Assembly (NCBI GenBank): GCA_043812975.1
Contig: JBDRLP010000025.1
Coordinates: 794 to 64,793, forward strand
Length of the DNA: 64,000 bases
Direction of reading: 5' to 3'
DNA from: Candidatus Iainarchaeum sp.
Lineage (GTDB): Archaea > Iainarchaeota > Iainarchaeia > Iainarchaeales > Iainarchaeaceae
Position 1 is the stretch's first letter, and each line of letters starts with the position of its first letter. Made by a program: the position numbers and the translations under genes. This document shows, in pieces, positions 40,046 to 50,736 of this stretch. Below the pieces are notes generated by a model that ran no database searches, was not told the origin of the DNA, and worked only from the letters and a program-made list of their open reading frames with translations.

Positions 40046-40073
40046 TTTCTTTCTTTTTTGGTACAGCTTTTTT
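40046..40073. repeat. 28-nt direct repeat copy A (tttctttcttttttggtacagctttttt)
   Basis: Identical to 40102..40129; lies 3' of tRNA-Leu on the transcribed strand. Confidence 0.8.
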
Positions 40074-40101
40074 CTTCAAACCTAGATGCTTTTTCTTTTA
40101 A

Positions 40102-40129
40102 TTTCTTTCTTTTTTGGTACAGCTTTTTT
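40102..40129. repeat. 28-nt direct repeat copy B
   Basis: Perfect copy of 40046..40073. Homology to the tRNA-Ser intron element extends through 40160. Confidence 0.8.
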
Positions 40130-40160
40130 ATTTCTTTCCAAAAGAAAGAAAAAAGGTGTG

Positions 40161-40244
40161 TGCAGGAGGACGGATTCGAACCGTCGAAGGCGCTAGGCCA
40201 ACAGATTTTGAGTCTGTTCCGTTTGACCGCTTCGGTACTCCTGC
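40161..40244 (-). tRNA. tRNA-Leu (anticodon CAA), 84 nt, long variable arm, no encoded CCA
   Basis: Hand-folded cloverleaf: acceptor GCAGGAG/CTCCTGC, D-stem CCG/CGG, anticodon stem ACAGA/TCTGT with loop CTCAAAA, 15-nt variable arm, T-arm GACGG-TTCGAAT-CCGTC. Confidence 0.85.
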
Positions 40245-49364: not shown

Positions 49365-50360
49365 TCAAAGAAAATTATTCCAATAAGTTTCATTGAGTTC
49401 TGTGGCAGCAAATTGTGCTAATTCTTTGTAATCTTTTTTTTCTGCCTGGTCAATAAATGATGCATCAGCAGTATTCAAAGCATCTAAATATTCAGATCTG
49501 TGCTTATTCTGAATTATTAAAGGAGGGTAATTGGATTTTAATAAAATAAAATTCATCAGCATTCGTCCAGTTCTGCCATTCCCATCAAAAAAAGGATGAA
49601 TTTTCTCAAACTTATGGTGGAATAAAACAGCGAGAACAAAAGACTGCATCTTTTTCTTATTTTGTTTATACCATTTAATCAACAAATCAAGATCTTTAGA
49701 AACTAAATAAAACGGAGAAGCTTTGAATCTCATATGCATAACTCTAATATCTTTAGTCCTGTATTCTGTTCTTGAATCAATATTTTCAAGTAAATCAGCA
49801 TGAATCTTTTTTATCAAATCATGCGAAATATCTTTCTTAAAATCTAACTTTTCAAATACTTTTTTTGTATTTTGCAAATCATAAATTTCCCGAAGGGTTT
49901 TCCCCTTAGGGGTCAATCCGTCTTCCAAAAGATCATGTGCTTCTTTCAAAGTAATAGTATTGCCTTCAATAGAAGCAGTGTTAACAGCATATTCAATCAA
50001 AAAACCATTCATCATCTGCTCTTGTGTTAAAGAATCAAGATTCTTGAAAACCGCAGTAAAATGTAATTTACAAGCCTCAACATCAAACAAAGTGTTTTCT
50101 AAAAAATCATTAGTTTTCAATTTAAGCTTTTTAACTTCCTCCAAAAAATGATTTGACTCTAAAAACAAATTAATTTTCCTATAAGCCTTTTCAATATCCT
50201 TTTTATACTTAGGAAGCTTAACCAATTTTTTCTTAACTGATTCAATATTATTTCCTAAATAAGCAACATCTTTTGAAATAACTTTACCATTTTTCCTTTT
50301 AGAAGTGCGTAAATAATAGTAAATCTTCCCACTAACAATTTTTTTGTAAATATAAACCAT
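49365..50360 (-). CDS. Fic/Doc (fido) family protein
   Basis: HPFFDGNGRTGR Fic motif. Start moved to the Met at 50360 because the track ORF N-terminus (to 50486) runs into the tRNA-Ser gene. Confidence 0.85.
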   Translation of the reverse strand: MVYIYKKIVSGKIYYYLRTSKRKNGKVISKDVAYLGNNIESVKKKLVKLPKYKKDIEKAYRKINLFLESNHFLEEVKKLKLKTNDFLENTLFDVEACKLHFTAVFKNLDSLTQEQMMNGFLIEYAVNTASIEGNTITLKEAHDLLEDGLTPKGKTLREIYDLQNTKKVFEKLDFKKDISHDLIKKIHADLLENIDSRTEYRTKDIRVMHMRFKASPFYLVSKDLDLLIKWYKQNKKKMQSFVLAVLFHHKFEKIHPFFDGNGRTGRMLMNFILLKSNYPPLIIQNKHRSEYLDALNTADASFIDQAEKKDYKELAQFAATELNETYWNNFL

Positions 50361-50430
50361 ATAATAATAACAGACAAACCAATATATAAATCTACCCACT
50401 ACATAAGAAATTTCTCTTGTAGTGGGTAAA

Positions 50431-50597
50431 CGCGGGGAACGGGATTCGAACCCGTGCGTCCAGAAGGACAACAGCTCGCCGCACAATTCCCAAAATTCAA
50501 AGCTCCTTGCTTTTTCTTTTGGTACAGCTTTTCTTTTTCACCGAAAAAGAAAAGGTGTTTAGCAGGCTGCCGCGTTAGACCACTCCGCCACCCCCGC
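50431..50597 (-). tRNA. tRNA-Ser (anticodon GCU) with an 83-nt intron at canonical position 37/38
   Basis: Hand-folded: exon 1 (50597..50560) GCGGGGG-TG-GCGG..CGC-G-GCAGC-CTGCTA. Exon 2 (50476..50431) is A-GCTGT, a long variable arm TGTCC-TTCT-GGAC, T-arm ACGGG-TTCGAAT-CCCGT, and acceptor TCCCCGC-G. The mature length is 84 nt. Confidence 0.75.
50477..50559 (-). other. tRNA-Ser intron carrying the conserved GGTACAGC / poly-purine element
   Basis: Boundaries inferred from anticodon-stem pairing (+/-2 nt). Contains a perfect 11-bp hairpin UUUUCUUUUUC/GAAAAAGAAAA and CUGUACC. Confidence 0.6.
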
Positions 50598-50736
50598 ACA
50601 CCGTCTGCTCACGGTGGTAGAGCGTCCACCTCACTTGGGTTCGGTAGGACATACTAACGCCGTTCACAAAAAGCAAAAAAATGGCTAAATCCAATGCTTA
50701 TAAACATAATTCAGAGTAAATTTATAAGGTTATATA

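Follow-up and report, generated by a model that had tools for sequence, protein, structure and literature searches.

A conserved sequence element with a triple-helix signature at stable-RNA gene ends and in introns of DPANN archaea

A 64,000-nucleotide stretch of the Candidatus Iainarchaeum sp. genome (GenBank assembly GCA_043812975.1, contig JBDRLP010000025.1; hereafter the window) carries a short structured element at both of its tRNA genes: one copy adjoins the 3' end of tRNA-Leu(CAA), and another lies inside the intron of tRNA-Ser(GCU). The element belongs to a conserved family associated in DPANN archaea with stable-RNA genes, at their ends and in their introns. It spans about 50 bases and, written on its T-rich strand as we do throughout unless stated otherwise, consists of a first pyrimidine tract (Y1), the linker GGTACAGC, a second pyrimidine tract (Y2), a loop of 3–8 nt, a purine tract (R) and the terminal pentamer GGTGT. 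Y2 pairs with R in a hairpin, and Y1 is an anchored mirror of Y2. The comparative data bear a strong signature of an intramolecular Y•R–Y triple helix, into which the T-rich strand could close with Y1 as the Hoogsteen strand parallel to R. As to function, we tentatively favour a role as a polar boundary for the adjoining gene.

The initial annotation of the window had reported a perfect 28-nt repeat beside tRNA-Leu and a homologous segment in the tRNA-Ser intron. Both were confirmed when the sequence was re-read. The repeat, tttctttcttttttggtacagctttttt, occurs at 40046–40073 and 40102–40129 with no mismatch between the copies, the second of which abuts the 3' end of the tRNA, and the trailer and intron copies are one and the same element (Table 1). 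The RNA-sense description given there (CACC, a pyrimidine tract, GG, a purine tract, CUGUACC and a second purine tract) is accurate as well. After position 40129, the Leu copy reads tttctttcc-aaa-agaaagaaaaaa as far as GGTGT; its hairpin contains a single A•G mismatch (40130 versus 40148). On the minus strand its R tract reads UUUUUUCUUUCUUUU, with an oligo-U run (T6) that starts 7 nt past A73 of tRNA-Leu. The Ser-intron copy has a mirror match of 11/11, and its T runs are just 4–5 nt long. The linker GGTACAGC is found at exactly three sites in the 64 kb, each beside or within one of the two tRNA genes, a count that is mildly unusual for an 8-mer (chance mean 0.44; at least three sites in 3 of 100 shuffles). 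A generic detector of the architecture recovered the complete module, with mirror tract, hairpin and purine tract, clearly only at the Leu and Ser sites; its three further candidates in the window were weak and at chance level (0–3 in shuffles).

To place these copies in a wider context, we scanned 185,579 genomes, one per species, for the exact pattern YYYYYYTTTTGGTACAGCTTTTYY, which forced only T4 and pyrimidines beside the linker and left the C positions and R free. The scan returned 59 loci, to which the L numbers used below refer: 50 archaeal, from metagenome-assembled genomes (MAGs) or single-cell genomes, and 9 others. A hairpin and then GGTGT follow nearly every archaeal occurrence of the pattern, although the query specified neither. 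The eight bacterial matches and the one from Promethearchaeota show the pattern with no hairpin, and we therefore took them to be chance occurrences. Archaeal matches with a phylum label are nearly all DPANN (AR10, Iainarchaeum andersonii, and Woese-, Nano-, Aenigm-, Parv- and Altiarchaeota labels), and the single-cell genome of Iainarchaeum andersonii holds the most exact-pattern copies of any one genome, eleven. A regular expression extracted 51 full elements with the GGTACAGC linker from 46 archaeal loci of relatives and from the window, which contributes two. The 49 distinct elements among them were aligned with MAFFT, and pair counts were compared with those of 500 shuffles. No viral contig carries the pattern, and Rfam searches of the window copies, by gathering score or by E-value, gave no family match, only sub-threshold resemblances to generic hairpins. 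Neither this motif nor a triplex-type element at archaeal tRNA genes came up in a full-text literature search, and the family is apparently previously undescribed.

The hairpin is supported by extensive covariation. Across the 49 aligned elements, 90.4% of the cells of a 17-pair helix between Y2 and R are paired, 82 of them with both sides changed, and none of the 500 shuffles was as good. The homopyrimidine:homopurine helix is 8–16 bp long and stands on a 5-bp base, ACAGC:GGTGT, whose G•G mismatch is kept in 48 of the 49 elements. Covariation extends into this base, as seen in the pairs GGCCAAGC/GGTTG, GGTTAAGC/GGTTAA and AATACAC/GTGT and in GCTGT in L050. The same architecture recurs with other 8-nt linkers, among them GGCACAGC, GGTGCAGC, GGCCAAGC, GGTCAAGC, CGTCAACG, CGCCAGCG, CGGTCGCG, CGTTAACA and CCCTAGGG; the family extends beyond the GGTACAGC linker.

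The most informative feature of the element is the relation of its first arm to the hairpin. Y1 is the anchored mirror of Y2, and hence the parallel complement of R, at 559 of 572 positions, and 44 of the 51 elements match perfectly; the register is fixed by the Y1 base beside the linker, which corresponds to the R base beside GGTGT. The match holds across 15 patterns of C positions. When partners were reassigned among elements in 2,000 permutations, a mean of 9.5 elements agreed (maximum 20). At the eight parallel correspondences between Y1 and R (T with A, C with G), 99.5% and 97.6% were matched with 73 double changes, against 0 of 500 shuffles, and sliding the register by 1–3 columns lowered the match to about 75% (68–84%). 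An instructive case is the orthologous site upstream of tRNA-Arg(GCG), preceded by the same open reading frame (ORF) in two genomes: the tract is T5CT3CT3 in L012 and T4CT5 in L013, and each version is consistent in all three tracts. A mirror repeat can neither be produced by templated copying nor be read by a symmetric protein, and we accordingly rejected a protein-binding repeat, which a symmetric dimer could not read in mirror form. Three-way covariation with an anchored mirror is instead the signature of a Y•R–Y triple helix, composed in the predicted register of T•A–T triples and isolated C•G–C triples.

The same data bear on a proposal of the initial annotation, an RNA switch whose pyrimidine tract would pair with either of two purine tracts to give two mutually exclusive hairpins. 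The window Leu copy does allow a 12-bp shifted helix, and most tracts with a single C permit shifted pairing. However, what the family conserves is the anchored mirror of the first arm and not a direct repeat, and a slide of the register destroys the match. Tracts with three C residues are particularly telling: as alternative helices they would be mispaired, whereas as mirrors they match perfectly or nearly so (L002, 13/13; L020, 14/14; L033, 14/14; L053, 12/13). This part of the annotation was not supported, and we consider the switch highly improbable.

Apart from its loops, the hairpin is identical in both senses. Of the 22 tetraloops, ten have the G..A form when read on the T-rich strand, against none on the opposite strand. 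Triples of the pyrimidine motif are the chemically favourable kind, and together with the G..A loops this makes the T-rich strand appear to be the folding strand. Two other indicators of strand were discarded: wobble pairs, of which only four were informative, could not identify the transcribed strand, and the two senses differ in energy only as an artefact of comparing a G•G with a C•C mismatch.

Two variations on the architecture were observed. Five copies carry an insertion of about 45 nt in the linker (L001 5331–5424; L012 312–410; L013 2125–2230; L039 1537–1638 and 1719–1820) with the form CCUU, hairpin 1, GAGGCCUC, hairpin 2, AAGG. The two hairpins vary between copies while pairing is kept, and the palindromic 8-mer is constant in four copies, with GAUGCCUC/GAGGCAUC in the 5' copy of L039; the insertion could be a dimerisation or protein-binding module. 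In L018, L020, L033, L042 and L053, Y2 has an extra bulged C (TTTTTC-C-TTT) that is found in neither Y1 nor R. The bulge is conserved across tRNA-Trp orthologs, and in all these copies R fits the third strand better than its paired arm.

The element is placed with a defined polarity. Its open end, GGTGT on one strand and ACACC on the other, sets flush on the end of a stable-RNA gene, a stop codon or a 5' splice site. The largest class, 16 of the 51 copies, lies at tRNA 3' ends antisense to the tRNA, where A73 is usually the A of ACACC (the window Leu copy has one extra C) and where the tRNA-sense RNA would continue from ACACC into a U-rich tract. Ten copies lie at tRNA 5' ends on the tRNA strand, with GGTGT at positions −5 to −1. 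Four, including the window Ser copy, are found in tRNA introns, as is another in L003; all of them are antisense and have their ACACC end at the 5' splice site. A further four make up mini-introns that contain little else than the element. Three copies mark the 3' ends of 23S rRNA (L010 and L029, 22–23 nt past the end of the Rfam model) and RNase P RNA (L010, 3 nt); the 3' end of RNase P RNA in L029 is also flush with an element, which has a different linker and is not counted among the 51. Six follow the stop codons of protein genes, four of them sharing the last A of the stop codon with ACACC (TAA-CACC, TGA-CACC), and eight remain unclassified. Thus 37 of the 51 full copies abut or sit within stable-RNA genes. 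This bears out the view of the initial annotation that the motif is not chance low complexity but a conserved, structured element associated with tRNA genes, an association that held when its positions were recorded in relatives. The placements flush with tRNA 5' ends in the opposite orientation, at RNase P RNA and 23S rRNA ends and at stop codons go beyond what had been described.

The element follows the stable-RNA gene and not the neighbour on its Y1 side, as seen for tRNA-Trp in L020, L033 and L053 and for RNase P RNA in L010 and L029. About half of the tRNAs that were not themselves selected by the motif bear a variant of the element at one flank, a proportion that applies to the fetched loci, which were picked by the motif; tRNAs without the element often show a plain T run at the same place. 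The position can differ between lineages: in the case of tRNA-Ser(UGA), L040 and L046 carry the element at the 5' flank, L043 has it in the intron and L049 has it downstream. L013 has an extra copy with no counterpart at the orthologous position of L012. In five or six of the ten tRNA 5'-end copies, a canonical TATA box precedes the linker by 21–35 nt, a feature that is rare in the other contexts. The tRNA transcript therefore probably starts near GGTACAGC and reads through Y2, without including Y1.

Additional placements were noted in individual loci. Three tandem mini elements of the form ACC-UUUU-ag-AAAAA-GCUGCACC-AAAA follow tRNA-Tyr in L003 (below 4804, minus strand). L011 (145–235) has a second tRNA-Gly 3' end (...GAAUCCCGGCGGCCGC), about 85 nt downstream of the called tRNA-Gly and flush with the element, which may reflect an unrecognised T-loop intron or an attachment (att)-like duplication. 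In three loci the element is flush with a sequence TTCTGGnnCCC... that fits no Rfam family or long ORF (L024 192–230, L046 4656–4690, L049 3960–4000); the site lies downstream of tRNA-Ser(UGA) in L046 and L049, and L024 has no tRNA call. Finally, half copies upstream of the tRNA 5' elements in L021 and L035, which are neighbouring MAG loci, have a canonical TATA box, TTTTAAT, in the Y2 position after the linker, suggesting that T-rich arms easily become promoters.

The intron copies are integrated into bulge-helix-bulge (BHB) motifs. By manual pairing, the tRNA-Ser intron of the window has a 4-bp central helix of CUGC (C32–C35) with GCGG (50479–50482), 3-nt bulges UA↓A and CG↓A on opposite strands and an outer helix ACA/UGU, and the element fills the 5' 50 nt of the intron. 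In the ortholog of this intron in L026 the element is kept, and the remaining intron has diverged. The tRNA mini-intron of L005 interrupts the T arm at 53/54 (CCCG/CGGG, GG↓A, CACC/GGUG, AA↓U), and its removal in silico leaves a perfect T arm; the copies in L016 and at L057 7610 occupy the same T-arm context. A mini-intron in the 16S rRNA of L057 (ACCG/CGGU, UG↓A, CACC/GGUG, AA↓A) gives on removal GUACCGUG joined directly to AGGCGUCC; the motifs of both L005 and L057 are canonical. The link between introns and flanks suggested by the initial annotation is therefore real, since BHB mini-introns consisting of little but the element occur in relatives. In three of the four mini-intron copies the mirror tract has decayed, which is consistent with a third strand that is needed only outside introns.

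Other RNA-level explanations of the window copies were rejected. BHB processing of the tRNA-Leu trailer is contradicted by a complete tRNA and by the lack of a GGUG closing helix and of a complementary 4-mer after the distal purine tract. Split, permuted or trans-spliced tRNAs do not fit, as both window tRNAs match the Rfam model over positions 1–71. A C/D box or H/ACA small RNA was dismissed: the 83-nt intron and the Leu trailer contain no C (RUGAUGA) or D (CUGA) box, and no Rfam snoRNA match came near threshold over the window copies. A leader–trailer processing stem fails because leaders are not consistently U-rich or complementary.

A selfish explanation would make the element a mobile, intron-like repeat that spreads in the discarded parts of precursors (introns, leaders and trailers) and at the starts of 3' untranslated regions, its structure serving its own propagation or harmless removal. 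We regard this as a serious if doubtful alternative. The BHB mini-introns (L005, L016, L057 7610 and L057 16S) are almost wholly element and leave perfect exons when removed in silico, the position at the same tRNA differs by lineage, as for tRNA-Ser(UGA), and the extra copy in L013 and the commonness of tandem partial copies point the same way. One identical 8-nt linker is shared by MAGs labelled as several archaeal phyla, the element is a dispersed hairpin with up to 11 copies per genome, and similar introns of unrelated tRNAs in Thermoproteales, interpreted as the outcome of intron transposition, offer a precedent (PMC4090602). On the other hand, no target-site consensus, target duplication or terminal repeats were seen at the junctions. 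No associated transposase or reverse transcriptase was seen in the fetched loci, and none of the copies is on a viral contig. Within a genome, copies carry different tracts, each consistent in three places, and therefore point to long residence under selection and not to recent copy-and-paste. Furthermore, no known mechanism of insertion would set copies directly against stop codons and, in opposite orientations, against the two ends of tRNAs. A related proposal, an integrase att site or viral origin, was rejected, as no tRNA part is duplicated in the window and no viral contig matches.

While the structure and placement of the element can be read from its copies, its function has to be weighed among several models, and no single one accounts for everything. 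The one we favour, though with considerable reservation, is that of a polar boundary element: an oligo-T terminator combined with a triplex-capable barrier that would serve the adjoining stable-RNA gene, the intron copies being derived. Oligo-T runs are a known termination signal of the archaeal RNA polymerase. A polymerase moving outward from the gene would terminate at the oligo-T run right after ACACC, leaving the tRNA with a short trailer. One moving inward would meet at least two T runs, and more where there are tandem half copies, and the T-rich strand, as nascent RNA of the inward transcript or as displaced non-template strand, could lock into the hairpin–triplex. This structure would then block transcription from neighbouring units before it enters the tRNA gene. 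In introns, the BHB motif would take its outer helix from the ACACC end, and the T runs may have been kept too short to terminate. The lengths of the runs agree with such a division: the T run beside ACACC measures 4–6 at gene 3' ends (5–6 in 13 of 16 tRNA 3'-end copies) versus 3–4 in all eight intron copies (Mann–Whitney p ~0.001), and intron tracts are shorter overall.

Several points weigh against this boundary model. Termination by itself gives no reason for the mirror symmetry, and the role of the triplex is one that we infer. At tRNA 5' ends, the placement of the TATA boxes means that the gene's own polymerase must cross Y2. Read-through of a T4–T5 run is needed elsewhere as well: by the copies in 8–9 introns, by a copy between tRNA-Ala and 23S rRNA in an apparently single rRNA operon, and in L020, where an ORF begins 21 nt past the linker with no visible promoter. 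The 51 copies are phylogenetically non-independent, and the census of ORF orientations is crude and noisy and was used for long ORFs only.

A broader formulation, to which we give similarly guarded credence, is that the elements may form a natural, sequence-encoded triple-helix punctuation system, the first in archaea, which would define and protect the ends of stable-RNA transcription units genome-wide and also seed BHB introns in tRNA and rRNA genes. Such punctuation could act either as an RNA fold resembling the element for nuclear expression (ENE), its end set by tRNA-processing enzymes in a prokaryotic counterpart of MALAT1–mascRNA, or as a DNA/RNA triplex barrier induced by transcription.

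Taken alone, an ENE- or MALAT1-like RNA is unlikely. In this model a transcript of the U-rich sense would form a U•A–U triple helix around its own genomically encoded A-rich tract, and a cut by RNase P at the adjoining tRNA, or at its antisense 'mirror', would leave the 3' end buried and protected from exonucleases. The order of the strands (first U-rich tract, cap, second U-rich tract, turn, A-rich tract and GGUGU:ACAGC) is the topology with which the ENEs of MALAT1, MEN-beta and PAN clamp an A-rich tail, and two U-rich strands and one A-rich strand stand in register for consecutive U•A–U and C•G–C triples. Folding of the U-rich strand is favoured by pyrimidine-motif chemistry and the G..A loops. 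Ten copies directly precede a genuine tRNA 5' end, RNase P RNA is present in these genomes, and in many cases, including the window Leu locus, a co-oriented ORF ends 1–140 nt upstream of Y1. Yet the predicted start at the linker would give a tRNA-promoter transcript that lacks Y1, and in L020, L023, L028 and L036 the Y1-side neighbour is oriented away from the element, leaving no source of U-rich-sense RNA. Intron copies are antisense to their hosts, and the element tracks the tRNA, not the upstream gene. Over the two window copies, neither an ENE nor a MALAT1 or PAN family was matched in Rfam, and tRNA-Leu, when read in antisense, is not scored as a tRNA.

Somewhat less probable still is a role as a cis-acting helper of precursor maturation, in which a stable hairpin, through coaxial stacking with the acceptor stem in leaders or trailers or through closure of the splice motif in introns, would guide or protect the precursor or its excised piece during cleavage by RNase P, RNase Z or the splicing endonuclease. 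In both senses the hairpin has the same form, with its open end invariably turned towards the mature end: A73 is mostly the A of ACACC, GGUGU ends at −1, and ACACC supplies the BHB outer helix in introns. In L020, a cut by RNase Z would yield a downstream mRNA that begins with the hairpin. This model leaves the mirror tract and the stop-codon copies unexplained, and the element is missing from about half of the tRNAs in the same loci. In addition, a structure flush with the cleavage site is expected to hinder RNase P and RNase Z. We rejected a more specific version in which RNase P would treat the hairpin as a minihelix ending in a 3' ACCA tail, the tRNA-sense stem being followed by ACC-A: most copies would lose the discriminator if the helix were cut at its base, and CC is missing from several linker variants. 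We also rejected the element as a tRNA promoter, with GGTACAGC as transcription factor B recognition element and Y2 as TATA box. The TATA box would be poor, its spacing varies between 29 and 36 nt, the orientation at tRNA 3' ends would drive antisense tRNA, and canonical TATA boxes are found upstream of Y1.

At the DNA level, the element could adopt a non-B structure, H-DNA or a cruciform with triplex arms, extruded by negative supercoiling at busy gene borders and acting on topology, replication, recombination or access of integrases. No other reading is compatible with all contexts and with both orientations. A homopurine–homopyrimidine mirror repeat around a short spacer, which is what the element contains, is the classical H-DNA motif, and at tRNA 5' ends Y1 is perfectly mirrored although probably untranscribed. 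However, arms of 8–14 bp are short and physically marginal for H-DNA. The purine arm on the same strand, the strand-specific G..A loops and the linker insertions of about 45 nt fit a single-stranded fold better, and flush placement answers no DNA-level requirement. We consider a purely DNA-level role improbable.

The features of the window are collected in Table 1. The window has about 34% G+C and tightly packed ORFs, among them a P-type ATPase, a DEAD-box helicase, Fic and Dus, and the two tRNAs are its sole RNA genes detectable with Rfam; tRNA-Ser(GCU) was found by Rfam and missed by ARAGORN with default settings. The distal half copy begins directly after the stop codon of a convergent ORF, and tandem half copies of this kind are frequent among relatives. 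Between that stop codon and the tRNA-Leu antisense, the ORF strand carries five T5–T6 runs. Upstream of tRNA-Ser(GCU) lies a GC-rich structured leader of about 75 nt (50598–50675, minus strand; minimum free energy −28.9 kcal/mol, z = −2.9), the GGTGT end of which is flush with tRNA +1. It has no Rfam match and is not present at the orthologous locus L026; its plus strand has a D-arm-like GCTC-ACGGTGGTA-GAGC, and it may be a tRNA remnant or another flush element. On the other side, 3 nt past tRNA-Ser, is a perfect 9-bp inverted repeat, CCCACTACA ... TGTAGTGGG (50398–50428, minus strand), followed by a TATA-like TTTATATA ahead of the Fic-domain ORF 49365–50486.

Table 1 Element copies, tRNA genes and the neighbouring reading frame, in coordinates of the 64-kb window
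Feature	Position	Strand	Basis or remark
Distal half copy: third-strand tract tttctttctttttt (40046–40059), linker GGTACAGC (40060–40067), then T6	40046–40073	+	Sequence
Y1 of the full tRNA-Leu element, pyrimidine third-strand tract	40102–40115	+	Exact parallel complement (mirror) of R, 14/14
Linker GGTACAGC of the full tRNA-Leu element	40116–40123	+	GGT, 3-nt turn; ACAGC:GGTGT as A-T, C-G, A-T, G•G mismatch, C-G
Hairpin: Y2 ttttttatttcttt (40124–40137), loop cca (40138–40140), paired R (40141–40154)	40124–40154	+	Purine run from 40140
GGTGT (tRNA sense ACACC), base of the hairpin	40155–40159	+	One base off the tRNA-Leu discriminator
tRNA-Leu(CAA), adjoined by the element	40161–40244	−	CCA not encoded
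Full element in the tRNA-Ser intron, 49 nt: Y1 (50510–50520), GGTACAGC (50521–50528), Y2 (50529–50539), loop acc (50540–50542), R (50543–50553), GGTGT (50554–50558)	50510–50558	+	
tRNA-Ser(GCU): exon 1 (50560–50597), exon 2 (50431–50476)	50431–50597	−	Rfam, 42.3 bits
tRNA-Ser(GCU) intron at 37/38, 83 nt	50477–50559	−	Manual BHB reading; Rfam: ~85-nt insertion after position 37
Convergent ORF, 365 aa	38948–40045	+	No Pfam match

Covariation of such three-way quality is rare, and the element would rank among the clearest cases of a biological triple helix supported by comparative sequence analysis. To our knowledge, it would be the first such case in archaea. Many tRNA genes are affected in a poorly understood, uncultivated group, about half of those in the motif-picked loci. 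With one family linking tRNA flanks, the ends of RNase P RNA and rRNA, and BHB introns, there is a testable handle on the long-standing question of the origin and movement of archaeal tRNA and rRNA introns, as well as on the way transcription units are marked off in compact archaeal genomes. Annotation of DPANN MAGs would also gain from a model of the element, both for tRNAs with introns and for the ends of RNA genes.

Conservatively, the element is akin to two known kinds, structured intergenic or intronic repeats and triple-helix elements, and its resemblance to each is partial. With the ENE/A-rich triple helices of MALAT1, MEN-beta/NEAT1_2, the PAN RNA of Kaposi's sarcoma-associated herpesvirus (KSHV) and transposon ENEs, it shares the order and polarity of the strands and the isolated C•G–C among U•A–U triples, and ten relatives have a tRNA immediately after it, in the manner of mascRNA after MALAT1. 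Unlike these, the element is archaeal, much smaller, wholly in cis, closed by a simple loop of 3–8 nt and known here from sequence; it is equally often antisense to the tRNA, also occurs in introns, and tracks the tRNA gene instead of the upstream RNA. Like H-DNA mirror repeats, it has a perfect pyrimidine mirror around a short spacer with isolated C positions, but it adds a third tract as an inverted repeat on the same strand, has strand-specific loops and short arms, and forms a conserved multi-copy family flush at RNA gene ends, whereas H-DNA tracts are scattered.

Among archaeal BHB introns, the tRNA-Ser copy sits in a canonical 37/38 intron, and the non-canonical mini-introns of relatives lie in a tRNA T arm and in 16S rRNA. 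In Thermoproteales, similar introns in unrelated tRNAs were read as intron transposition by a mechanism that is not known (Fujishima et al. 2010, cited via PMC4090602), and a sequence common to introns of unrelated tRNAs is a shared trait; the present element differs in that most copies are non-intronic and its lineage is DPANN, and no mirror architecture has been described for those introns. Short multi-copy hairpins that often lie between convergent genes, with tandem or partial copies and compensatory stems, are also found among repetitive extragenic palindromic sequences and bacterial interspersed mosaic elements (REP/BIME), Correia elements and Rickettsia palindromic elements (RPEs). Unlike REP/BIME, the element has no RAYT-like or other transposase in view, and it is set apart by its mirror tract, strict polarity, flush placement and spliceable introns. 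Finally, it resembles the oligo-T terminators of the archaeal RNA polymerase and of eukaryotic RNA polymerase III in its T5–T6 run a few nucleotides past the tRNA 3' end and in the tandem T runs on the opposite strand; plain terminators, in contrast, need no hairpin or mirror, and the element is tolerated within leaders and introns.

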